Assembly: GCA_963664875.1 (NCBI GenBank) | Contig: OY761611.1 | Location: 3,392,001 to 3,456,000, forward strand | Source of the DNA: Candidatus Kapaibacterium sp. | GTDB lineage: Bacteria > Bacteroidota > Ignavibacteria > Kapaibacteriales > UBA2268 | Direction: 5' to 3' | Length of the DNA: 64,000 nucleotides | Shown: positions 151 through 63,418 of the stretch, in pieces | Layout of the letters: every line of letters starts with the position of its first letter | Numbering within the stretch: position 1 is the stretch's first letter | Notes under the pieces: model-generated | What the model saw: the letters and a program-made list of their open reading frames with translations, nothing else | Told to the model about the DNA's origin: nothing | The model's database searches: none | Made by a program: the position numbers and the translations under genes

Positions 151-160
151 CTCACTCTTG

Positions 161-471
161 TCGCCCTTACAGGGTTAAGGGATCAGAAGAATATTATATC
201 CATGACGATGCCATGGACTACGTTTTTGGGGCTTTCAGCCTTCTTGTTTCTGTAATATTTTGCACAATATCTGCATGAAACTTATTTATGAGGTTGTCAC
301 ATAAGTACTATTTAGATATTATTAGACAAACTTAGTGAAAAACATTAGTGTAAAAGGAGGCTGAAAGCCTCAGATATATTAGCCCGGGGCAGCGCCCCGG
401 GAAAGATAAGACATTGAAATATAGAGCCCTGTAAGGGCGACCAGTTTGAGACGCAATCATTGCGTCTCTAC
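161..471. repeat. Back-to-back pair of tnpA-end-like palindrome clusters plus a GTAGAGACGC-type REP hairpin
   Basis: 161-242 resembles the right end and 356-441 the left end (ggctgaaagcc, cccggggcagcgccccggg, gccctgtaagggc) of the tnpA element at 60895-61537; gagacgcaatcattgcgtctctac at 448-471. Confidence 0.75.
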
Positions 472-3613: not shown

Positions 3614-4003
3614 ATTTCGGGCTAAAGAAATTTACTACCTTAATATATAATATCACGACCTAACATATTGGAATCTCATGCCGGCTCTCTTAGGAAAAGC
3701 TGATTGTAAAAATTAGCATTGCCTAAGTCTTCAAAAAATCTTTACTCTTGATATTAATATTTAGTAATTGCAGATTGCTGCTATTGTACAATAAAATCAC
3801 TCTCGCTATTTTCCGGACGTGTTCTAAAATTAACTGTTTCCCATATTTGTTTGTTTTAGAGCTTGTGTGTGAAATCCGGAATATTTATTTCAAGTGCGGG
3901 AGTTATTCCCATAGTAATTCCCGCACTGATATTCCAAAAAGGTATTTCCAAAATAGAAATTGAAAATTATTTGAATAGATTTTTGCTATCTGAGGAGAAT
4001 GTT

Positions 4004-4549
4004 ATGTCAGAAGTCCAAAAATGTTGCAACTGTCAGCACGAACAAACCGAAGAAGAATTATTAGTGATTCTTGAGGATGTTCTAAATGACTATAAAGACA
4101 AACCGGGAGCGTTAATCCCTGTTTTGCAAATAGCTCAAAATATGTTCGGCTACTTGCCGGAAGCAGCTCTTAAAAAAATTGCTTTAAAAATGGAAAAACC
4201 ATACAGCGAGGTTGCAGGTGTGGTAAGTTTCTATTCTTTCTTTTCTACAGTGCCTCGCGGTAAATATGTGATTCGCATTTGTCTTGGTACAGCTTGCTAC
4301 GTACGTGGCGGAAAAGATGTCTTAGATGCATTTAAAACCAAATTGAAAATTGATGTAGGCGGAACTACCGATGACCGCTTGTTTTCTCTCGATGTCGGAA
4401 GATGCTTTGGTGCATGCGGTTTAGCACCGGTTATAATGGTTAACGACGAAACATTCGAAAGAGTAAAACCGGACAGAATAGAACAAATAATCGGCATATT
4501 CCAGAAGAAAGAGCAGGAAGAAAACATCGAGGAGAACGTAAATGGCTAA
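4004..4549 (+). CDS. hydC: [FeFe]-hydrogenase HydC/NuoE-like [2Fe-2S] subunit
   Basis: CLGTACYVRG...CFGACGLAP [2Fe-2S] motifs; ATG at 4004 preceded by GAGGAG, preferred to the 3863 start. Confidence 0.9.
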   Translation: MSEVQKCCNCQHEQTEEELLVILEDVLNDYKDKPGALIPVLQIAQNMFGYLPEAALKKIALKMEKPYSEVAGVVSFYSFFSTVPRGKYVIRICLGTACYVRGGKDVLDAFKTKLKIDVGGTTDDRLFSLDVGRCFGACGLAPVIMVNDETFERVKPDRIEQIIGIFQKKEQEENIEENVNG

Positions 4550-7500
4550 TATAAATTTCAAATCAGCTCAGGATTTGCTCAAATATAGAGAGCATCTCAA
4601 ACAAGAAACTGAAAACTCTAAAATACAGAGAAGAATCTTAGTATGTACAGGCGGTGGTTGCCTTGCATCAGGTTCACAAAAAGTAAAAGATAAATTTGAA
4701 GCCATTCTTGGCGAAAAAGGCTATGATACTGTCCAGGTAAAAGGCACAGGCTGCCTTGGTCCTTGTGTCAAAGGCCCTATCGTAGTGATGGAACATGACA
4801 ACACTTTCTACCAAGATGTCAGACCTGATGATGTTGCCGAATTGATTAGTTCGCATGTAGAAAACGGCGAAATTGTAGAAAGACTGAATTGGAAAAAAGA
4901 TGCAGATATGGCTGCAATTCCAAAAATGGACGATATCGAATTTTTCAAATCACAGACTAAAATAGTTTTACGCAACTGTGGAAAAATAGATCCTGTCAGT
5001 ATAAATGACTATATCGAAATAGGTGGATATGCTGCTGTTGCAAAATCTCTTACTGAACTCACACCCGACCAGGTATTGGAAGAAATGAAAAAATCAGGTC
5101 TTCGTGGTCGTGGTGGAGCAGGTTTTCCTACTTGGATGAAATGGGGATTTGCCAAACGCAATGAGTCTGACCAAAAATATATGCTCTGTAATGCTGATGA
5201 AGGCGATCCGGGTGCATTTATGGACAGATCTGTGCTCGAAGGCGACCCTCACAGCTTAATCGAAGGTATGGTAATCGGTGCTTATTGCATCGGTGCTTCC
5301 CAAGGTTATGTATATGTACGAGCTGAGTATCCTTTAGCAGTAGAACGTTTGCAAATAGCCATCGATTCAGCTCGAGATATGGGCTTGCTTGGCAATAACA
5401 TACTTGGCTCTGATTTTTGCTTTGACTTGGAAATTAGAATGGGTTCCGGTGCATTTGTTTGCGGTGAAGAAACTGCTCTGATTGCTTCTATCGAAGGTAA
5501 AAGAGGCGAGCCTCGTCCACGTCCGCCATTTCCGGCAGATAAAGGTCTTTGGGGCAAACCAACAGTACTCAATAACGTTGAAACTTATGCCAATATTGCT
5601 GAAATCATATTAAAAGGCGGAGAGTATTTCGCTTCTTTCGGTACTGAGAAGAGTAAAGGTACAAAAGTATTTGCTCTTTCAGGGGCAATCAATAATTCAG
5701 GCCTTGTAGAAGTACCGGTAGGGACTACACTCGGCGAATTAGTGTTCGACATAGGAAATGGCATTCCTAATGGTAAAAATTACAAAGCTGCTCAGGTTGG
5801 TGGTCCTTCCGGTGGATGTGTTCCAAAAGAACATCTCAACGTGAAACTTGACTACGAATCTTTGCAGGAACTTGGTGCTATCATGGGTTCAGGTGGTCTG
5901 GTTGTAATGGACGAAGATACTTGTATGGTTGACGTTGCACGTTTCTTCCTCGAATTTTCTCAAGAGGAGTCTTGTGGTAAATGCGTGCCTTGCCGAGTTG
6001 GTACTAAACGTATGTTAGAAATATTAGAAAGAATTTGCGATGGCAAAGGCGAACCTGATGATATAGAAAAACTAATAACACTAGGTGAGCAAATCAAAGA
6101 AACTGCACTTTGCGGTCTCGGCCAAACTGCTCCAAATCCGGTGCTTTCTACAATAAGACATTTCAGACATGAGTACGAACAGCACATCCATCAGAAACAT
6201 TGCGAAGCAGGTGTTTGTCGCGGTCTTGTACGTGCCCCATGCCAATCAGCATGTCCTGCTCACGTAGATGTTCCGGGATTTGTATCGCTTGTCGGCGAGA
6301 AACGCTATGCAGAAGCATTGAGATTGCACAGAGAACGCAATCCGTTTGCAGCAGTATGCGCAAGAGTTTGTTTCCATACCTGCGAAGATAAATGCCGTAG
6401 AGCAACTTTAGATGATCCTGTTTCTATCAGAGCATTAAAACGATTTATGGTTGATCAGGAAATTACTATTCAACTTCCTGAAGTCAGAGAAAATGAAAAC
6501 AACGCAAAACGCAAAATAGCCATTATTGGTGCAGGACCAGCAGGTCTTACATGTGGCTACTTCTTGGCAAGATTGGGATACAAACCGACTGTATTTGAAG
6601 CAGAACACAGACCGGGTGGTATGTTAGTACAAACTATCCCTTCTTATAGATTGCCGAGAGAGATTCTCGCTCGTGAAATCCGTATGATTGAAAATCTTGG
6701 TGTGGATATCCAATGTGATAAAAAGCTGGGTAGAGACTTCTGGATTGAAGATTTGAGAAAAGAAGGCTACGAAGCAGTATTTATTGCAATCGGTACTCCA
6801 AAAGGTGTATGTTTGGATCTGCCGGGAGGCAATCACTCAGACGTTCACAACGCGATGGACTTCCTTAAAACATATAATCTAAGAGGCTCCGCTCCAATTA
6901 AAAACAAGATTATCATCGTTGGTGGTGGTAATGCTGCCATGGATTCAGCAAGGTCTGCTATCCGACTTGGTGCCGAAAGTGTAACAGTAGTTTACAGAAG
7001 AAGCCAAGAACAAATGCCTGCATATACCGAAGAAATCGAAGAAGCATTGCAGGAAGGCGTTAAAGTTATGGCTTTGACCAACCCTAAAGAAATAATTATC
7101 AAAGATGATAAGATTGTGGGTGTTAAATGTCAAAGCATGACGCTTGGCGATTTCGACAGCTCAGGAAGAAGAAGAGCTATCAGAAGCGAAGACGAATTCG
7201 TACTTGAGGCAGATCAGGTAATTATGGCTTGCGGTCAGGACTTTGATGATAGTTTGATACCGCAGGGAACAAGATTAGATATGATTGGCGATAAGAGTAT
7301 TGTCGTTAATCCTGTAACACAGCAAACATCAGTGCCTTGGGTATTCTCAGGTGGCGATGCAGCGGGTAATTTTGAAAGAACAGTAATCGAAGCTATTGCA
7401 GCGGGCGAAAGAGCAGCTGTTGGTATCGATGAGTTCTTGACCGGTGATAAACACGCATTCTGGAGAGAAGATTGGAAAATCGATACATACTTCGATCCTG

Positions 7501-25550: not shown

Positions 25551-25750
25551 TTGATTTGAAAGTGTATTAGTGTATAATTAGTGATTATATGCTACTGTTT
25601 TCGATGTAACCTGTCACTTATATTCTTTAAGTATATACAATAAATAGAATTAGGGAAGTATAAAGAAAGAAAAACAAAACAATACATAAGTATATTGAAT
25701 TCATAATTAGATCCTTGGAACGCGAAAGCCTAATTCAAATTATTAAATAT

Positions 25751-25916
25751 AAAAGAGACAGGTCTCCCGGCTTTTCCTCTGCTTTTGCCGCCTTCCCATT
25801 TCAATGCTTGAAACAGTGACATAATGGCAAACAGTTTGTATATGGAATTTACGGTTGCGCGTCAGCCCGTGATTTACACACGGTTCCCTATTAAATTCAC
25901 AGGAATATCTCTTTTT
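25751..25916 (-). promoter_or_regulatory. Cobalamin (B12) riboswitch
   Basis: Minus strand reads AATAGGGAAccgtgTGTAAATcacgggCTGacgCGCAACCGTAA...GTCACTG...GGGAAGG...AAGCCGGGAGACCTG (B12 box); P1 AAAAGAGAU/GUCUCUUUU. Confidence 0.9.
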
Positions 25917-26236
25917 AGAATACTGCACTTTGGTGCGAACTCAAATATAGTACATCGTACCAAATATTAAAAAATATAATAATTAATTATCGAACTTCTG
26001 CCAATTACAGATTTTGCAGAGGAATTATCTCTGATTTTAACCGAATATTGATTTGTGTTTTACTGACATATAAGCTCCCTCTAAGAAAGTACAATCAAAA
26101 ATTTGTAGCTTAAAATCGCAATGTCTCTGAGCAGAATATCTCCTAATCGTACGCTGTTAAAGAAATTATGTATTTATTTGAAGTAATTTGCGTAATATTG
26201 CAGTAATTTTTTTGTATTACCTTTGGGCTTCCCGAT

Positions 26237-42469: not shown

Positions 42470-42880
42470 AAGAGCCTGAAAGGCTCAAAGCAAATAGCAA
42501 AAGTCTTATTGCAAAGAATAAAAAAAATTCCCCTCTTGAGCGATGTGCTGAGCGAGCACAGCGAGTCGAAGTAGGGTGCCCTGAAAGGGCGGGGTGGAAA
42601 AGAACCTTATATCTACCACTACTCTAAAAAATATATCGCCGAAGTTATTTATATAGAAAACATACTGCATACTCTGAAAATTTGTGCTTCGTGTGTTTCC
42701 ACCCCGCCTCACCTTCGGTGAGCCACCCCTCAAGAGGGGAATGGTGAGGGTTTTGGCTCAAAATATTAGAGAAAGAGCCTGAAAGGCTCAAAACAATTAG
42801 CCCGGGGCAGCGCCCCGGGAAAAGAAACGTCCACACCCTCGTTTTCTATACCGAGCTAAGCGAGGTGAGTGGCGAAAACA
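42470..42880. repeat. Large REP mosaic
   Basis: Two gagcctgaaaggctc, cccggggcagcgccccggg and a tcccctcttgag...caagagggga inverted pair; 42586-42725 recurs at 44802-44940 and 42472-42578 recurs at 46428-46534. Confidence 0.85.
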
Positions 42881-44767: not shown

Positions 44768-45030
44768 ACTTCCCCTCTTGAGGGGTGCGTGAGCGAAGCG
44801 AGGGCGGGGTGGAAAAGAACCTTATATCTACCACTACTCTAAAAAATATATCGCCGAAGTTATTTATATAGAAAACATACTGCATACTCTGAAAATTTGT
44901 GCTTCGTGTGTTTCCACCCCGCCTCACCTTCGGTGAGCCATAGCTCGAGAGGGGAATGATCAGCTAAGGTCACTGCATCTCGACTCATTTTATTCGCTCG
45001 ATAACCGCGAGTGTAACGAGTCGAAGTGCG
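44768..45030. repeat. REP mosaic between T9SS cargo genes
   Basis: Direct repeat of the 42529-42740 block without the 33-nt insert, followed by actgcatctcgactcattttattcgctcgataaccgcgagtgtaacgagtcgaagtgc. Confidence 0.85.
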
Positions 45031-45072
45031 GGCTGAAAAAACAAAAAAACACAAACACAAGGATAAATAATT

Positions 45073-46404
45073 ATGCAAAAAATTCTAATACTAATATTTC
45101 TAACACTTGTATTTCCCGACAAGGAAGCATATAGCCAAACAGAAGATGTTGTGTGGCTAAAAGAAAATTTCTATTTGGAAGAGTTTAAATTCCATCCTAC
45201 TCAGGATATTTTTACTTCTTTCAATCAGTATTGGAAGGGTTTAAAAATATTTGATAAAATGACAGGTGATTCGATTGGTATGTTTCCTATGGGCGACTCG
45301 GTAAGAGGGCTGCAATATACTTTTAATACGGACGGCTCTTTGCTGGCTAGTTTCAGTTGTCCTGGTGTCATTCGTTTATGGAATTTTGAAACGAAGGAAC
45401 AAATGATTGAGTCAAGCATTGAATATTTACTTGATGCAGATTTAAAGAAGAATTTCTATGTTGGCTCTATCGATATATCTAATGATAATAAATATATTGC
45501 ACTTGGACTTTTTGGAGCTGGTTTTGTAGTATTTGATATTGAAAAAAATAAAGTTATAAAACATCAGTATTGGGAATATGATCATCCCAAATGGGGAAAA
45601 TCATTTATGGGAAGTGACTACGTAGAAATTAGTCCGGATAATAATTTAGTATTAGTTATTAGAAACCCGGCAGACAATATGCCTCAAATGATATTTTTAT
45701 ATAATATCAAAAAAAACAAAACAGAATATTTTGATATGGGATCGCATGCGATATTTTCTCCTACAGATAATGTCATGTATTATTTTAGAGATGCTTATGA
45801 TGATCAAACAGGAGAAGTGAAAAGTCTTGGTAGGTATTACGTAAATTTTGATATCAGTGATGAACCTATCAAAAGCCCTGCTAGTTTGTCAGATTGTGTT
45901 TTCTCCTTTGATGGAAAATTTATTGTTGTAAGATCAAAAATGTATTATGAAAGCATATTCTATCAACCTTACATATATAAAACTGATGATTTGTATAACT
46001 TTGCTTACAAAAGACCTTTTAATGATGTGTTCAAAATTGGAAGATGTATTTTAGATTACTCAAACAATTTTATATTGGGTGGTTCAAATCAAGGATTAGC
46101 TTTGTTAGATTTAAAAGGTGTGTTAACTTCAGCCAAAGAGGATATTAATGATAGCATAAAAATATTCCCAAATCCTGCAAATAAAACCATAACAATAAAA
46201 ACATATATAGAACATACCGGTTTACTCAAAATTGAAATTCAGAATATAGATGCTTCCATAAATCAGACTTTAAAAAAAGAAATTGTAGAAGTAGGTGAAT
46301 ATTCAGAAGAATTTGATATTAGTGCGATGCCACAAGGTACTTACTTCATTACTCTTGAGTTTTCAGGTCAAACAGAGAGTAGAAAAATTGTGGTGGTGAG
46401 GTAG
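45073..46404 (+). CDS. WD40-like beta-propeller T9SS cargo protein, copy 1
   Basis: Signal peptide; FHP/FNTDG/ISPDN/FSP repeats; FPNPA...GTYF...KIVVVR. Confidence 0.8.
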   Translation: MQKILILIFLTLVFPDKEAYSQTEDVVWLKENFYLEEFKFHPTQDIFTSFNQYWKGLKIFDKMTGDSIGMFPMGDSVRGLQYTFNTDGSLLASFSCPGVIRLWNFETKEQMIESSIEYLLDADLKKNFYVGSIDISNDNKYIALGLFGAGFVVFDIEKNKVIKHQYWEYDHPKWGKSFMGSDYVEISPDNNLVLVIRNPADNMPQMIFLYNIKKNKTEYFDMGSHAIFSPTDNVMYYFRDAYDDQTGEVKSLGRYYVNFDISDEPIKSPASLSDCVFSFDGKFIVVRSKMYYESIFYQPYIYKTDDLYNFAYKRPFNDVFKIGRCILDYSNNFILGGSNQGLALLDLKGVLTSAKEDINDSIKIFPNPANKTITIKTYIEHTGLLKIEIQNIDASINQTLKKEIVEVGEYSEEFDISAMPQGTYFITLEFSGQTESRKIVVVR

Positions 46405-46427
46405 AAATCAATTACGAATTTTAGTGG

Positions 46428-46748
46428 GAGCCTGAAAGGCTCGAAGCAAATAGCAAAAGTCTTATTGCAAAGAATAAAAAAACTTCCCCTCTTGAGCGAT
46501 GTGCTGAGCGAGCATAGCGAGTCGAAGTAGGGTGGAAACAAACGAAGCACAAATTTAAACAACATAAAAAATATAAATTAAATAGATAAGTTTAGCGATA
46601 CTATTTTCTGGGGCAGTGATTTGGATAAGATATTTATCCACCTCGTCTTACCTTCGGTGAGCCATCGCTCGAGAGAGGGGAATGGGCAGACTGCATCTCG
46701 ACTCATTTTATTCGCTCGATAACCGCGAGTGTAACGAGTCGAAGTGCG
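46428..46748. repeat. REP mosaic between the duplicated genes
   Basis: Built from segments shared with 42472-42578, 44910-44958 and 44972-45030. Confidence 0.8.
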
Positions 46749-46789
46749 GGCTGAAAAAACAAAAAACACAAACACAAGGATAAATAATT

Positions 46790-48121
46790 ATGCAAAAAAT
46801 TCTAATACTAATATTTCTAACACTTGTATTTCCCGCCAAGGAAGCATATAGCCAAACTGAAGATGTTGTGTGGCTTAAAGAGGGAGTTAATTTGAATGAG
46901 TTTAAATTCCATCCTACTCAGGATATTTTTACTTCCTTCAATGAGTATTGGAAGGGGTTAAAAATATTTGATAAAATGACTGGGGATTCTATAGGAATGT
47001 TTCCTATGGGCGACTCGGTAAGAGGGCTGCAATATACTTTTAATACGGACGGCTCTTTGCTGGCTAGTTTCAGTTGTCCTGGTGTCATTCGTTTATGGAA
47101 TTTTGAAACGAAGGAACAAATGATTGAGTCAAGCATTGAATATTTACTTGATGCAGATTTAAAGAAGAATTTCTATGTTGGCTCTATCGATATATCTAAT
47201 GATAATAAATATATTGCACTTGGACTTTTTGGAGCTGGTTTTGTAGTATTTGATATTGAAAAAAATAAAGTTATAAAACATCAGTATTGGGAATATGATC
47301 ATCCCAAATGGGGAAAATCATTTATGGGAAGTGACTACGTAGAAATTAGTCCGGATAATAATTTAGTATTAGTTATTAGAAACCCGGCAGACAATATGCC
47401 TCAAATGATATTTTTATATAATATCAAAAAAAACAAAACAGAATATTTTGATATGGGATCGCATGCGATATTTTCTCCTACAGATAATGTCATGTATTAT
47501 TTTAGAGATGCTTATGATGATCAAACAGGAGAAGTGAAAAGTCTTGGTAGGTATTACGTAAATTTTGATATCAGTGATGAACCTATCAAAAGCCCTGCTA
47601 GTTTGTCAGATTGTGTTTTCTCCTTTGATGGAAAATTTATTGTTGTAAGATCAAAAATGTATTATGAAAACATATTCTATCGACCTTACATATACAAAAC
47701 TGATGATTTGCATCACTTTGCATACAAAAGACCTTATAATGATGTTTTTACAATCGGAAGATGTATTTTAGATTACTCAAACAATTTTATATTAGGTGGT
47801 TCAAATCAAGGATTAGCATTATTAGATTTAAAAGGTGTTTTAACTTCAGCCAAAGAAGATGCTAATGATAGCATAAAAGTATTCCCAAATCCTGCAAATA
47901 AAACCATAACAATAAAAACAGATATAGAACATACCGGTTTACTCAAAATTGAAATTCAGAATATAGATGCTTCCATAAATCAGACTTTAAAAAAAGAAAT
48001 TGTAGAAGCAGGTGAATATTCAGAAGAATTTGATATTAGTGCGCTGCCACAAGGTACTTACTTCATTACTATTGAGTTTTCAGGTCAAACAGAAAGTAGA
48101 AAAATTGTGGTGGTGAGGTAG
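46790..48121 (+). CDS. WD40-like beta-propeller T9SS cargo protein, copy 2 (tandem paralogue)
   Basis: Same length (443 aa) and near-identical to copy 1, including the upstream leader. Confidence 0.85.
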   Translation: MQKILILIFLTLVFPAKEAYSQTEDVVWLKEGVNLNEFKFHPTQDIFTSFNEYWKGLKIFDKMTGDSIGMFPMGDSVRGLQYTFNTDGSLLASFSCPGVIRLWNFETKEQMIESSIEYLLDADLKKNFYVGSIDISNDNKYIALGLFGAGFVVFDIEKNKVIKHQYWEYDHPKWGKSFMGSDYVEISPDNNLVLVIRNPADNMPQMIFLYNIKKNKTEYFDMGSHAIFSPTDNVMYYFRDAYDDQTGEVKSLGRYYVNFDISDEPIKSPASLSDCVFSFDGKFIVVRSKMYYENIFYRPYIYKTDDLHHFAYKRPYNDVFTIGRCILDYSNNFILGGSNQGLALLDLKGVLTSAKEDANDSIKVFPNPANKTITIKTDIEHTGLLKIEIQNIDASINQTLKKEIVEAGEYSEEFDISALPQGTYFITIEFSGQTESRKIVVVR

Positions 48122-48145
48122 AAATCAATTACGAATTTTAGTGGG

Positions 48146-48400
48146 AGACTGAAAGGCTCGAAGCTATTAGCCCTAGGCAGCAAAGGTGACTGCATCTCGA
48201 CTCATTTTATTCGCTCGATAACCGCGAGTGTAACGAGTCGAAGTGCAGGAGAAAGGCACCCCCACACCACCGTTTTTTGAAAACCGAGCTCGATGTAAAG
48301 TATCGCAGTAAAGCTTGCGGAAAAGCTCGCTAAAGTTAAGAATATAATGCAATTTGAGACTTACGAGACTGCCTACCAATAAACAAGATTATGACCTAGC
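48146..48400. repeat. REP mosaic closing the T9SS gene cluster
   Basis: gagactgaaaggctc; gactgcatctcgactc...gtcgaagtgc; gacttacgagactgcctaccaata (inner IR of the composite element). Confidence 0.7.
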
Positions 48401-50045: not shown

Positions 50046-50119
50046 TACGCCAGAAAGGATTCGAACCTTTGGCCTACAGCTTAGAAGGCTGTTGCTCTAT
50101 CCAGCTGAGCTACTGGCGC
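50046..50119 (-). tRNA. tRNA-Arg (anticodon TCT), CCA not encoded
   Basis: GCGCCAGTAGCTCAGCTGGATAGAGCAACAGCCTTCTAAGCTGTAGGCCAAAGGTTCGAATCCTTTCTGGCGTA folds as a cloverleaf. Confidence 0.97.
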
Positions 50120-50246: not shown

Positions 50247-50341
50247 GGTCAAGCCCTTTGTGGTTAAGTCAAACCCAATCCCGCCAGGTCCGGAAGGAAG
50301 CAACGGTAAGTTTCGTCTTAAGGCACAAAGTAAGCTTGGCT
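50247..50341 (+). ncRNA. ffs: Signal recognition particle RNA (4.5S)
   Basis: Helix-8 motif cccgccaggtccggaaggaagcaacggt inside a long hairpin (ggtcaagc...gcttggct), then a T run. Confidence 0.92.
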
Positions 50342-50517
50342 TTTTTTTTATATTTACAAACCTAACAAATAAATCCCCAATTTAATAAAGTAAATCCCCA
50401 ACTTTATCAAGCAAATTCCTCAAAATATCATCGGCAATAATAGCACAGATAAAAAATTTGCTATATTGCAAACAAATCTCAACTTGAAAGATTATTTGGA
50501 AAAGATAAGAAAATCAG

Positions 50518-59749: not shown

Positions 59750-60803
59750 TTTTCAATTTAACTATTTATCTACACTGCTACTTAAAAGGAATTTATAATT
59801 TTATAAAAATATATAGTTTGACGAATTGACAAAAAAGAGAGGCTGAAAGCCTCAAAATAGATTAGCCCATGGCAACGCCATGGGTATAAGGCATCAAAAA
59901 AATTAGAGCCCTGAAAGGGCGGGAAGAAATGGCATGGCACACTCTTTAGGGTGTCCCGGGGCGATGCCCCTAGCTAATATCTTTCAGCCTTACAGACTGT
60001 ATGCAGAGTCCTTTTCAATTTGACAATTTATCCGCTCTGCTACTTAAATTGAATTTATAATTTTATAAAAAAATATATAGTTTGACGAATTGACAAAAAA
60101 GAGAGGCTGAAAGCCTCAAAAGAGATTAGCCCATGGCAACGCCATGGGTATAAGGCATCAAAAAAAATTAGAGCCCTGAAAGGGCGGGAAGAAATGGCAT
60201 GGCACACTCTTTAGGGTGTCCCGGGGCGATGCCCCTAGCTAATATCTTTCAGCCTTTCAGGCTGTATGCACAGTCCTTTTCAATTTGACAATTTATCCGC
60301 TCTGCTACTTAAATTGAATTTATAATTTTATAAAAAAATATATAGTTTGACGAATTGACAAAAAAGAGAGGCTGAAAGCCTCAAAAGAGATTAGCCCATG
60401 GCAACGCCATGGGTATAAGGCATCAAAAAAATTAGAGCCCTGAAAGGGCGGGAAGAAATGGCATGTCACACTCTTTAGGTGTCCCGGGGCGATGCCCCTA
60501 GCTAATATCTTTCAGCCTTTCAGGCTGTATGCAGAGTCCTTTTCAATTTAACTATTTATCTGCTCTGCTAGTAAAAGGAATTTATAATTTTATAAAAAAA
60601 TATATAGTTTGACGAATTGACAAAAAAGAGAGGCTGAAAGCCTCAAAAGAGATTAGCCCATGGCAACGCCATGGGTATAAGGCATTAAAATAAATTAGAG
60701 TCCTGAAAGGGCGGGAAGAAATGGCATGGCACACTCTTTAGGGTGTCCCGGGGCGATACCCCTAGCTAATATCTTTCAGCCTTTCAGGCTGTATGCAGAG
60801 TCC
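59750..60803 (+). repeat. Tandem array of four ~264-bp internally deleted copies of the adjacent tnpA element
   Basis: Units start at about 59750, 60012, 60277 and 60540; a fifth start at 60804 runs into tnpA. Each unit is AT-rich leader + three hairpins + 16 nt of tnpA + right-end hairpins. Confidence 0.92.
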
Positions 60804-60894
60804 TTTTCAATTTAACTATTTATCTGCTCTGCTATTTAAAAGGAATTTATAATTTTATAAAAAAATATATAGTTTGACGAATTGACAAAAAAGA

Positions 60895-61537
60895 GAGGCT
60901 GAAAGCCTCAAAAGAGATTAGCCCATGGCAACGCCATGGGTATAAGGCATCAAAAAAAATTAGAGCCCTGAAAGGGCGGGAAGAAATGGCATGGCACACT
61001 CTTTAGCCGAAGTATATATTCACATTGTTTTCAGTACAAAAGACAGAGCACAAATAATAAAAAATGATTTAAGTGCCAGATTGCATTCCTACCTGGGAGG
61101 AATTTGCAATGGATTAAATTGTACCCCTCTCTCAATTGGAGGTTATGAGGATCATATTCATATACTTTGTGTTTTATCAAAAAAGACTAGCATTGTTGAA
61201 CTTGTTGAAAATCTCAAAAAACAATCTTCACGATGGATAAAAGAGCAGGACGCAAAATATTCATCTTTTTATTGGCAGGCCGGATATGGAGTATTCTCAG
61301 TAAATAAATCTCAAATATCTGATATTCGAAACTATATCGAAAATCAAGTCGAACATCACAAACGTGTAGATTTCAAACAGGAATACAAAGCCATCTTAGA
61401 CAAATTAGGAGTAAAATATGATGAAAGATATTTGTGGATATGACCATCTTGCCGCCCTTTCAGGGCTCTGGTAGTTTGGTTTGGGGTGTCCCGGGGCGAT
61501 GCCCCGGGCTAAGATCTCTCAGCCTTTCAGGCTGTAT
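60895..61537 (+). mobile_element. IS200/IS605-like (REP-associated) element with long inverted hairpin-bearing ends and no tnpB
   Basis: Left ggctgaaagcc/cccatggcaacgccatggg/gccctgaaagggc is mirrored on the right by gccctttcagggc/cccggggcgatgccccggg/agcctttcaggct. Confidence 0.85.
60991..61443 (+). CDS. tnpA: Y1 HUH transposase (IS200/IS605 TnpA / RAYT-like)
   Basis: HIVFSTK.R, DHIH (HUH), WQ.GYG.FSV, YIENQ (catalytic Tyr), C-terminal YDERY. Confidence 0.93.
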   Translation: MAHSLAEVYIHIVFSTKDRAQIIKNDLSARLHSYLGGICNGLNCTPLSIGGYEDHIHILCVLSKKTSIVELVENLKKQSSRWIKEQDAKYSSFYWQAGYGVFSVNKSQISDIRNYIENQVEHHKRVDFKQEYKAILDKLGVKYDERYLWI

Positions 61538-61567
61538 ATTTAATTGAAATTTTGGACTTTACAGTCC

Positions 61568-61741
61568 CTCAGTGACCTTAGATCACACGTAGTAAACCTG
61601 CCCAGCCCGTAATCTACTTTGCGCACGCCGTGGTCGCCCAGTTCGCTTTCTCTGTCAAGTTCCTTGCCGAGGTAGGCTGTGCGCTGGTCGTCGTTACCAC
61701 TTATGGCAGGAGCAAGCTTTCCAAATGGAAGATAATCAAAA
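61568..61741 (-). pseudogene. RHS header 6, truncated inside the insert, with no toxin tip
   Basis: FDYLPFGKLAPAISGNDDQRTAYLGKELDRESELGDHGVRKVDYGLGRFTTCD, then taaggtcactgag, then similarity ends. Confidence 0.75.
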
Positions 61742-62233: not shown

Positions 62234-62689
62234 TTATTTCATCTCCTCTAATAGATATGCATCTATCATGAAATAGTAGCAAGGAAGCATGTCAAATAAT
62301 GTGTTTTTTGAATCTTTTGGAATCGAGTAATATTTAGATCTGTATAAACAATAATCTAAAGTCACATTAAAACCAAATGTATCTCTTTGATGTTCAAATT
62401 CTTTAATAAAAACATGTTGGATAGTATAAAGCGGAGGCATTTGTTTAACTATATTTTTTTCAACAATAATAGAGTCTGTAATTTGAGTGAAACAAGAATA
62501 TATATCAATTCCTTTATACAATAGATAATTATCATAATGCAATTGACATATCTCTTCATTACTATGAATATACAAGCCCACTCCACTGTCAAAAGTATAA
62601 ATATGTATTTTATATCTATCACAATTAGCATGTCCAACTAATACTGAAAGAATAGCAAAAAGTAATAATGTTGATATTTTCTTATCCAT
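62234..62689 (-). CDS. Putative immunity protein 5, currently in frame with the upstream toxin
   Basis: Internal MDKKISTLLLFAILSVLVGHANC signal peptide at ATG 62689, after an A10 tract. Confidence 0.55.
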   Translation of the reverse strand: MDKKISTLLLFAILSVLVGHANCDRYKIHIYTFDSGVGLYIHSNEEICQLHYDNYLLYKGIDIYSCFTQITDSIIVEKNIVKQMPPLYTIQHVFIKEFEHQRDTFGFNVTLDYCLYRSKYYSIPKDSKNTLFDMLPCYYFMIDAYLLEEMK

Positions 62690-63418
62690 TCGTTTTTTCC
62701 TTTTTTTTTTGGGTACTTCTGTTGGAGAAGAAACATTTTTAGGTTTACCTTTGTGATCTTCTCTGCTTGATTCATCTGGGATAGCATCGCATGCTCTTTT
62801 CTCAGGTCCAGCAATAACTCTTTCTTCTTCATCATTGTCGTACTGTGGATTATAAGTTTTTATGGTTTTGATATATTCAAGTATAATATCATTGACAGAT
62901 TGTTTGAATTCCTTACTTGGAGGGAATCCATTGTTCTGCCAAAACTCCATATCGGATATATTTAATTGTTCAAAAGCATCGAAAATTGGAACAGCATGCA
63001 TTATTTCATGATATAAATTCATAGCAGGAGATTGCCCACTACCGTTTTCAAAAATAAGTCCTAATAAAGGAGACCACTCAACACGAAAAGCATTATTGCC
63101 AGTTCTAAATCTTTGTATATGAGAAGAATGTATGTCAATATCAAGTCTAACATGTGAATTATACATATCAATTAACTTAATTGCATCATCTTCTGGTAGA
63201 TTATCAATGAGATAATCTAAAGCCTAATTGAAATACATTTTATCCTGTTCAGTAGCATTAACTAATCTAAACTCTTTCCCATCATAATCAGCCAAACTCA
63301 CCGGATTGTTCATACTATACTGGTACGGAGACCATGCATAATATTTTTCCCACAGAGGGTCACACGTAGTAAACCTGCCTAGCTCGTAGTCCACTTTGCG
63401 GACGCCGTGGTCTCCCAT
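62682..63418 (-). pseudogene. RHS header 5 + HExxH metallopeptidase-like toxin tip with an in-frame TAG (63224-63226)
   Basis: ORFs 63418-63224 and 63166-62234 share a frame with one TAG between them; SPAMNLYHEIMHA...EE.RVI.G.E. Confidence 0.7.

Follow-up and report, generated by a model that had tools for sequence, protein, structure and literature searches.

A tandem array of gene-deleted, REPIN-like units beside a Y1 HUH gene of Candidatus Kapaibacterium, and related duplications beside homologous genes

Analysis of a 64,000-nucleotide stretch of DNA from Candidatus Kapaibacterium sp. (contig OY761611.1, positions 3,392,001 to 3,456,000; hereafter the window, in whose own numbering positions are given) revealed an intact Y1 HUH gene, tnpA, lying between mirror-image triplets of hairpins that resemble repetitive extragenic palindromic (REP) sequences. 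This REPtron-like unit is preceded by four gene-less units, head to tail, all of which lack the same segment; a single deletion was followed by copying of the shortened unit in place, one unit after another. Duplications and gene-fragment copies of a similar kind recur beside homologous genes in several phyla. As to how the array arose, we lean towards tandem duplication of the whole element, an illegitimate deletion and in-place expansion of the host type, in which the rare steps would have been provoked by hairpins or nicks.

Tandem Repeats Finder (TRF) delineated the array at 59750-61006 with a period of 265, 4.8 copies, 96% matches and a score of 2311, and found no other large tandem array in the window. 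Every unit opens with an AT-rich leader of 89 nt, followed by the hairpins h1 (GAGGCTGAAAGCCTC) and h2 (AGCCCATGGCAACGCCATGGGT), both exact in all five units, and h3 (AGAGCCCTGAAAGGGCGG), exact in four units and carrying one mismatch in the fifth. After h3 comes the start of tnpA (ATGGCACACTCTTTAG, its first 16 nt), which in units 1 to 4 (u1-u4) leads into the right-end hairpin sequence (GGTGTCCCGGGGCGATGCCCC...) and in unit 5 (u5) continues into the intact open reading frame (ORF). In none of 100 shuffled windows did any of the four motifs (h1, h2, h3 and right-end) reach five matches. At the edge of the 478-bp segment absent from u1-u4 the junction reads TTTAG/GGTGT, compared with TTTGG/GGTGT on the right side. 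TRF, the unit alignment and this junction thus bear out the initial annotation, which had described four units of 262-265 bp made of an AT-rich leader, three hairpins, 16 nt of tnpA and the outer right hairpins, one deletion at 61007-61484 and a fifth unit running into the gene. Its further observation that the right end of the units differs from that of the full element stands as far as 4 of 54 positions differ, but by rough arithmetic this is no significant excess over the left part, where 5-7 of 203 positions differ. The homology of the full right end to the units stops at 61537.

The differences between the units disclose how the array grew. Pairwise they amount to 4 to 14 positions: u1, the most diverged, differs at 14 from each of u2, u3 and u4, while u2 and u3 differ at 4 and alone have five derived leader bases in common; u3 also carries one G>T change in the tnpA remnant and lacks one G at the junction (alignment columns 191 and 203). 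Since u1-u4 share one junction and the same four right-end substitutions, one deletion came first and amplification followed, and since the pair u2/u3, with leader subtype b, is nested between u1, u4 and u5 of subtype a, the units were duplicated in place; units inserted one after another at one edge from a master copy could not have produced this nesting. The history is therefore a single shared deletion and then unit-by-unit copying in place, a pattern compatible with enzyme action and host recombination alike. That dispersed or fewer copies were wrongly joined during assembly is very improbable. Repeats 96-98% identical are difficult for short reads, and proteins 99% and 100% identical to those of tnpA and of the upstream Fe-S gene are otherwise found only on short contigs, no longer than 1800 and 3882 nt, respectively, which suggests that other assemblies break at the array; the differences between the units, however, form an ordered pattern, and like arrays are present in assemblies made independently, some of them isolate or complete genomes (homologous loci L025, L041 and L071, see below).

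From this pattern we infer the following order of events. A whole segment, which may have extended over about 59750-61567, would have been duplicated in tandem; one illegitimate deletion of 478 bp, at a junction of little microhomology (TTT-G), would then have taken out the inner right hairpin and all of the gene but its first 16 nt; and the gene-less unit would have been copied in place, one by one, to four copies, most likely through replication slippage or unequal homologous exchange among repeats 96-98% identical. Because non-homologous steps recur in the gene family, the first such steps were probably provoked by the hairpin clusters, through stalled forks or through nicks from the neighbouring enzyme. 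The putative outer end of the duplicated segment was located by the 24 nt from 61538 onward, which are absent from the units and are followed by CAGTCC (61562-61567), identical to the units' terminal bases (...GCAGAGTCC).

The product of tnpA contains the complete catalytic set H55, H57, Y115 and Q119, plus H122 and H123, and in an alignment with 24 homologues these residues as well as W95 and Q96 were invariant in all 25 proteins. Its HuH motif (D54-H55-I56-H57) and W motif (W95-Q96) fit the DH[IV]H and WQ of TnpA-Y1 subclass 1.2, its Y motif (Y115-I-E-N-Q119-V-E-H122-H123) fits the Y---Q--HH of that subclass (YIKNQKEHH), and the C-terminal tail Y143-D-E-x-Y147-x-W149 is conserved among the aligned homologues. 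The length of 150 aa, found in most of 120 listed homologues, agrees with the ~148 aa of the subclass. Because the DHIH, WQ and YIxNQxEHH motifs and the length all match, we assign the protein, by sequence, to subclass 1.2. It exceeded the cut-off of the NCBIfam IS200 equivalog NF033573 (78 bits, cut-off 55) and fell far below that of the TnpA-REP/RAYT model NF047646 (REP_Tyr_transpos; 21.3 bits, cut-off 80), and in a search against solved structures the nearest were IS608 TnpA (E 2.3e-13) and ISDra2 TnpA, no TnpA-REP structure matching at E 0.001. The paper that defines the subclass (Quentin et al. 2018, PMC6006769) describes it as close to IS200 yet not IS-like, of low copy number like the RAYTs, found mostly in Cyanobacteria and Bacteroidetes, and without associated REPs. 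Bertels et al. 2017 (PMC5581495) describe an 'IS200 Group 3', a possible equivalent of subclass 1.2, that lacks duplicates and plasmid copies and has abundant 16-mers in its flanks. By tblastn the 64-kb window contains one copy of tnpA.

The hairpins flanking the gene are inverted with respect to each other. In IS200/605 elements such as IS608 and ISDra2 the hairpins of both ends lie on one strand. At the tnpA element, the 18-nt h3 recurs exactly on the minus strand at 61452-61469, its first base 9 nt past the stop codon, as part of an inverted copy of h3 (h3'; Table 1), and the left-hand loops have the sequence TGAAA where the right-hand ones have TTTCA. Matches of the Rfam model Acido-Lenti-1 and of our own covariance model of the h2-h1 module (R1, built from 7 sequences) likewise change strand, from minus at the left end to plus at the right. 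The right module scored 64.8 bits with R1, and the fold of the full right end was better than all shuffles (z = -4.48). Because the flanking hairpins are inverted, we consider the locus REPtron-like and not an IS200/605-type insertion sequence (IS); inverted palindromes around a lone Y1 gene are given as the hallmark of REPtrons (PMC3333891, PMC6006769). The foot beside the hairpin is TTAG in the window, which departs from the 5' GT[AG]G of REP feet. The units have the organisation of tandem REPINs or bacterial interspersed mosaic elements (BIMEs), that is, a repeat unit with flanking sequence, head to tail beside the cognate gene. The folding of u4 outperformed 200 of 200 shuffles on both strands (z = -3.57 for plus, -3.50 for minus), and in its minimum-energy and centroid folds the h3 region pairs with the outer right hairpin (h1' region) to form one long imperfect hairpin, so that each unit is predicted to be a REPIN-like pair of inverted arms with an AT-rich linker of ~100 nt. 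This fold agrees with the REPIN-like unit envisaged by the initial annotation, and the shared anatomy with its reading of the units as gene-deleted derivatives of the neighbouring element. Its remark that IS200/605 elements do not normally form tandem arrays used the wrong comparison class, since the flanks are inverted and tandem clusters beside RAYT genes have already been described (PMC3116915, PMC3333891).

These ends also bear on the idea of repeated insertion at one target by an autonomous element of IS200/605 type and its miniature derivative, each event adding a unit at the left edge. We regard this as highly unlikely. The IS200 equivalog score and the nearest structures speak for it, but the flanks are inverted instead of lying on one strand, the derived bases of u2 and u3 would require that a master copy changed and then reverted, the subclass lacks IS properties according to PMC6006769, and neither a second gene copy nor a second full unit or full element is present elsewhere in the 64 kb.

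The flanking hairpins are not peculiar to this locus. We compared 80 loci listed by a profile search (one genome per species, best identity 58%, source genome not included; handles beginning with L refer to these loci), among them loci of Planctomycetota, Verrucomicrobiota, Acidobacteriota, Lentisphaerae and deltaproteobacterial metagenome-assembled genomes (MAGs). A search with a 13-mer of h3, allowing up to 2 mismatches with the stem kept, found it on both sides of the gene in 34 of the 80 loci, on one side in 17 and on neither in 29, so that at least one side carries conserved inverted hairpins in 51. Where both sides have it, the upstream copy is on the plus strand (median -40 from the start) and the downstream copy on the minus strand (median +18 from the stop). 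In all, 176 sites fall in the 62,795 nt within 400 nt of the gene as opposed to 40 in 646,089 nt elsewhere, a 45-fold enrichment. With R1, which gave 143 matches at E <= 0.1 in 808,935 nt, a hand tally at E <= 0.01 counted the canonical inverted pair, minus upstream and plus downstream, in 17 of the 80 loci, at least one canonical side in about 39, and just 3 matches farther than 700 nt from the gene. The pairing of the hairpins appears to be conserved through compensatory changes: across 47 matches at E <= 1e-4 (44 distinct rows) 89.8% of the cells are paired, compared with 73.8% in shuffles, though the alignment was fitted to R1 and so favours the structure; in 11 of 14 pairs both partners vary, and with the partner shifted by one column pairing falls to 52-55%. 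The h2 hairpin is near-invariant across phyla and is followed by C-T-[A/G] (43, 46 and 43 of the 47 aligned modules), which in left-end orientation gives a foot of [CT]AG that resembles but differs from the GT[AG]G of canonical REPs.

Beside the homologous genes there are also arrays. The initial annotation had proposed to look for them there, and the search was positive: 25 of the 80 loci have tandem repeats of period at least 30 no farther than 400 nt from the gene, and 12 have them elsewhere. Such repeats make up 8.8% of the near bases and 0.59% of the rest, a 15-fold enrichment that overstates the specificity because near DNA is mostly intergenic and far DNA mostly coding. Direct duplicates containing at least 12 nt of the gene adjoin it in 10 of the 80 loci, 8 of them clear (Table 1) and 2 not, L056 being weak and L058 containing a second, paralogous gene. 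In L019 gene-deleted units have again been formed, by a deletion independent of that in the window. The repeat of L010, which takes in the start of a neighbouring gene, was rejected as a tandem gene duplicate because 273 unique bases separate its copies. Among cultivable relatives, Gelidibacter maritimus F6074 (L041) has an array of 3.3 units of 209 bp, and L025 is from Algoriphagus sp. 4150. Two further loci deserve description. In L012 (577-1424 and 1470-1898) a divergent paralogue of 142 aa (HMH, YILNQNEHH) is preceded by an AT-rich array of 3.7 units of 230 bp, whose units have a 13-nt inverted repeat and no GC-rich hairpins. In L026 a 93-bp direct repeat (98.9%; 4680-4772 / 5865-5957, offset 1185 nt) brackets the gene and its partial duplicate, and looks like a very long target duplication or the integration of a circle by homologous recombination.

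The main idea of the initial annotation, HUH-driven concatemer amplification, is that the Y1 enzyme itself builds the array. It would do so by nicking single-stranded DNA (ssDNA) hairpins, the 3'-OH then priming copying or being transferred to a second cut, either with one unit added at a time or by rolling around an excised circle, as modelled for the BIMEs of E. coli TnpA-REP. Duplications, arrays and gene-fragment copies do concentrate at the tnpA-type gene in unrelated phyla, the catalytic residues are intact, and the sole large array of the window adjoins the gene while the four dispersed hairpin sites (see below) were not amplified. Moreover, the break points of the window (61006/61007) and of L026 (about 5774/5775) both fall at gene nt 15-16, ~29 nt past the h3 foot, and PMC3333891 reports cleavage away from the binding site and strand transfer in vitro that assembles tandem BIMEs (models, Figure 7). 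On the other hand, the remaining break points are scattered, at gene nt about 98 (L025), 354 (L065) and about 404-409 (both L019 and L071), and in L014 such hairpins form arrays 4.5 kb away from the gene. We also looked for a shared break point, which would have hinted at site-specific cutting, but L025, L034 and L065 break elsewhere, and the cases are too few for a conclusion; the coincidences could reflect chance or preferred cut sites. The units may also be poor substrates, because the base of their h2' stem has two mismatches and scores lower with R1 (41-50.7 bits, compared with 64.8 for the full element). A literature search for biochemistry on subclass 1.2 brought up only the paper defining it, and host recombination suffices once two 265-bp copies are present. 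Construction of the array by the enzyme is thus a real but doubtful possibility.

Several observations weigh against the host-type origin that we favour, or against the breadth of the pattern. A purely random host process does not predict the coincidence of break points in the window and L026, and the evidence as a whole fits host recombination and enzyme action equally. Placing the outer right boundary of the duplicated segment requires that a 24-nt indel be assumed, and unit number and heterogeneity are as the assembly gives them. The 29 loci without the h3 13-mer are mostly from Planctomycetota, Verrucomicrobiota or Acidobacteriota, several of them carrying the h2 module, and the intergenic nature of the DNA near the genes has been mentioned above.

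A third possibility is that the array has been kept for a function, as a titrator of the enzyme, as a stack of promoter-like leaders before tnpA, or as an antisense block. The initial annotation had suggested, as its alternative, structured RNA/ssDNA decoys that regulate tnpA. Presumed enzyme-binding hairpins are repeated in every unit and conserved by compensatory change, TTTATA-16-TATAGT is found in each of units 2-5, and 10 of 12 terminator-like sites between 59500 and 61800 consist of minus-strand h1 or h3 and a T run, when shuffles have 1.8 +/- 1.3. The promoter-like matches, however, number 11 against 6.9 +/- 2.4 in shuffles, no excess, and were dropped as a signal. Furthermore, the number, size and content of units vary by locus, tandem repeats are absent up to 400 nt from the gene in 55 of the 80 loci, and h2' is degraded in the units, so we hold a selected function to be unlikely.

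The hairpin module led us to the Rfam motif Acido-Lenti-1 (RF01687). Its match at 61489-61535 (34.6 bits, E 1.4e-5) lies below the gathering score of 37, similar matches occur on the minus strand within 59838-60941, and a gathering-score scan of the whole window returned only the cobalamin riboswitch, tRNA and signal recognition particle (SRP) RNA. Of 21 homologous loci scanned, three (L040, L032 and L066) have a match next to the gene that attains the gathering score, and L074 just misses it. Like Acido-Lenti-1, the module has two hairpins with a GGCUAA-rich linker, and the model matches over its full length. The motif appears as a table entry and seed alignment in Weinberg et al. 2010 (PMC2864571) and is filed as a probable small RNA, whereas here it occurs as inverted pairs around a DNA nuclease gene; two 2026 preprints call its function unknown. 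A full-text search of one library on the motif name found no statement tying it to a Y1 gene. Because it coincides with the flanks of subclass 1.2 genes and forms inverted pairs around them, the comparison suggests that Acido-Lenti-1 is not an RNA but a REP-like repeat of DNA, which supplies a concrete hypothesis for an abundant Rfam motif.

Besides the array, hairpins occur in four intergenic regions of the 64 kb (Table 1). The inverted pair of triplets at 160-440 is a putative dispersed REPIN-like copy. Judged from these 64 kb of the source genome, the hairpin repeats appear to be dispersed there, unlike in the 80 relatives, which have almost none beyond 700 nt from the gene. A second, unrelated intergenic repeat of 59-67 nt, 100% identical at 46686-46752, 44972-45034 and 48188-48246 and partly present inverted at 99-138, often adjoins hairpin modules in BIME-like mosaics. 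Such repeat mosaics follow each of two adjacent 443-aa genes (45073-46404 and 46790-48121), whose proteins are 96% identical and combine WD40-like repeats with a C-terminal sorting domain for type IX secretion. A direct repeat of 58 nt (89.7%; 61583-61640 / 63360-63417) begins shortly downstream of the element, its second copy overlapping a 64-aa ORF without a Pfam family; the region 61570-61730 was dropped as an RHS fragment because the matching ORF has no Pfam family, and the 58-nt repeat alone stands. The ORF at 62237-63166 gave only a sub-threshold Peptidase_M91 match. The Fe-S protein encoded upstream is 60-64% identical to proteins of Kapabacteria, Ignavibacteriae and Bacteroidota MAGs. 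The cobalamin riboswitch, tRNA and SRP RNA lie at 25740-25927, 50046-50119 and 50247-50344, respectively.

Table 1. Features of the array, the tnpA element and related sequences in the window and in homologous loci
Sequence	Feature	Position	Strand	Remarks
Window	Unit 1 (u1)	59750-60011	+	262 nt; leader, h1-h2-h3, 16 nt of tnpA, h2'-h1'
Window	Unit 2 (u2)	60012-60276	+	265 nt; leader subtype b
Window	Unit 3 (u3)	60277-60539	+	263 nt; leader subtype b; tnpA remnant ATGTCAC...
Window	Unit 4 (u4)	60540-60803	+	264 nt; leader subtype a
Window	Unit 5 (u5)	from 60804	+	continues into intact ORF 60991-61443
Window	Leader and left hairpin triplet of intact copy	60804-60990	+	h1 60895-60909, h2 60920-60941, h3 60962-60979
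Window	Promoter-like TTTATA-16-TATAGT of intact copy	60846-60873	+	
Window	Intact Y1 HUH gene tnpA	60991-61443	+	150 aa; TnpA-Y1 subclass 1.2 by sequence; Pfam Y1_Tnp E 1.3e-28
Window	Segment absent from u1-u4	61007-61484	+	478 bp
Window	h3', inverted copy of h3	61447-61469	-	23 nt, 95.7%; begins 4 nt past stop codon; missing from units
Window	Right two-hairpin module h2'-h1' of full element	61489-61535	+	perfect stems; Acido-Lenti-1-like
Window	Possible outer end of originally duplicated segment	61538-61567	+	inferred
Window	Solo gene-less inverted pair of hairpin triplets	160-440		spacer ~110 nt; R1 matches 198-243 (+), 356-402 (-)
Window	Hairpin modules in intergenic mosaic	42471-42820	-	
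Window	Single hairpin modules	46427-46460 and 48144-48187		
L006	Three full copies in tandem			
L010	732-bp repeat			non-tandem
L019	Gene-deleted units on both gene sides			298-300 bp; last 28-45 nt of gene kept
L025	Left end and first 98 nt of gene			downstream
L026	Left end and first 15 nt of gene			downstream
L034	Internal gene piece			63 nt
L065	Tandem duplicate: last 99 nt of gene and right end			269 bp; from gene nt 354
L071	Last 44 nt of gene and right end			upstream; complete Pirellulaceae genome
L040	Acido-Lenti-1 sites	4539-4583, 5512-5556		
L032	Acido-Lenti-1 site	3667-3711		
L066	Acido-Lenti-1 sites	4942-4986, 5461-5505, 5528-5572		
L074	Acido-Lenti-1 sites	4897-4942, 5503-5547		

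The tandem array is of a kind already known, because clusters of REPINs or BIMEs with flanking DNA beside RAYT genes have been described (PMC3116915, PMC3337134, PMC3733652, PMC3333891). New are the occurrence of tandem clusters in a Y1 subclass reported as repeat-free, the recurrence of such events in several phyla, and a unit that keeps the leader and the start of the gene and so shows a REPIN-like unit descended from an IS200-like, gene-bearing element. The descent of REPINs from IS200-like ends and the formation of tandem REPIN clusters are both stated as open in PMC3337134, and the locus bears on both, its subclass being the nearest to IS200 and its unit still carrying the first 16 nt of the gene, an indication that the unit was born by gene deletion. 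In the independent relatives L019, L025, L026, L065 and L071 comparable events took place with break points elsewhere, and since some relatives are isolate or complete genomes the system could be bench-tested. The hairpin flanks also correct the published statement that subclass 1.2 has no associated repeats. As a tentative proposal, which we hold to be possible though short of probable, subclass 1.2 enzymes would act in cis on their own flanks and nick [CT]AG-footed hairpins, which would give rise to recurrent duplications, gene deletions and arrays across phyla; the window would then capture a REPIN being born from an IS200-like element, with the gene lost, the arms kept and the unit amplified, and Acido-Lenti-1 would be the ssDNA substrate of the enzyme.

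Among known systems, the REPtron and BIMEs of E. coli (Ton-Hoang et al. 2012, PMC3333891) have in common with our locus a lone Y1 HUH gene with inverted palindromic borders, tandem and well-conserved repeats at one locus (tandem BIMEs occur around tnpA-REP), for which models of local amplification exist, and a gene that can be lost by deletion while its flanks stay. They differ in that the window protein falls outside the TnpA-REP family, its 265-nt unit combines an AT-rich leader and five hairpins with the start of the gene itself, and its foot is TTAG/[CT]AG and not GT[AG]G. The REPIN clusters beside three RAYT genes of P. fluorescens SBW25 (Bertels and Rainey 2011, PMC3116915, PMC3337134) likewise consist of near-identical units with their flanks, head to tail, up to four or five units and one cluster per RAYT gene, and the authors state that no mechanism had yet been proposed for them; unlike these, the window unit keeps 16 nt of the gene, so that descent from a gene-bearing element is visible, and the host is Kapabacteria/Ignavibacteria-like, of the Bacteroidota group. 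Subclass 1.2 as defined by Quentin et al. 2018 (PMC6006769) agrees in its motifs, length of ~148-150 aa, conserved tail and lack of IS-like character, whereas here inverted hairpins flank the gene and the loci extend to Planctomycetota, Verrucomicrobiota, Acidobacteriota, Lentisphaerae and deltaproteobacterial MAGs. With IS200/IS605 elements (e.g. IS608) and their miniature derivatives the locus shares the closest solved protein relatives, hairpin ends and a gene-deleted derivative, but its ends are inverted, its gene is present once in 64 kb, and its derivatives are tandem and not dispersed. Finally, in the TIRYTs, tyrosine transposases with terminal inverted repeats that include an Acidobacteria group (Di Nocera et al. 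2013, PMC3733652), inverted repeats likewise border a Y1 gene and in some cases belong to repeat families, a likeness that offers a lead.

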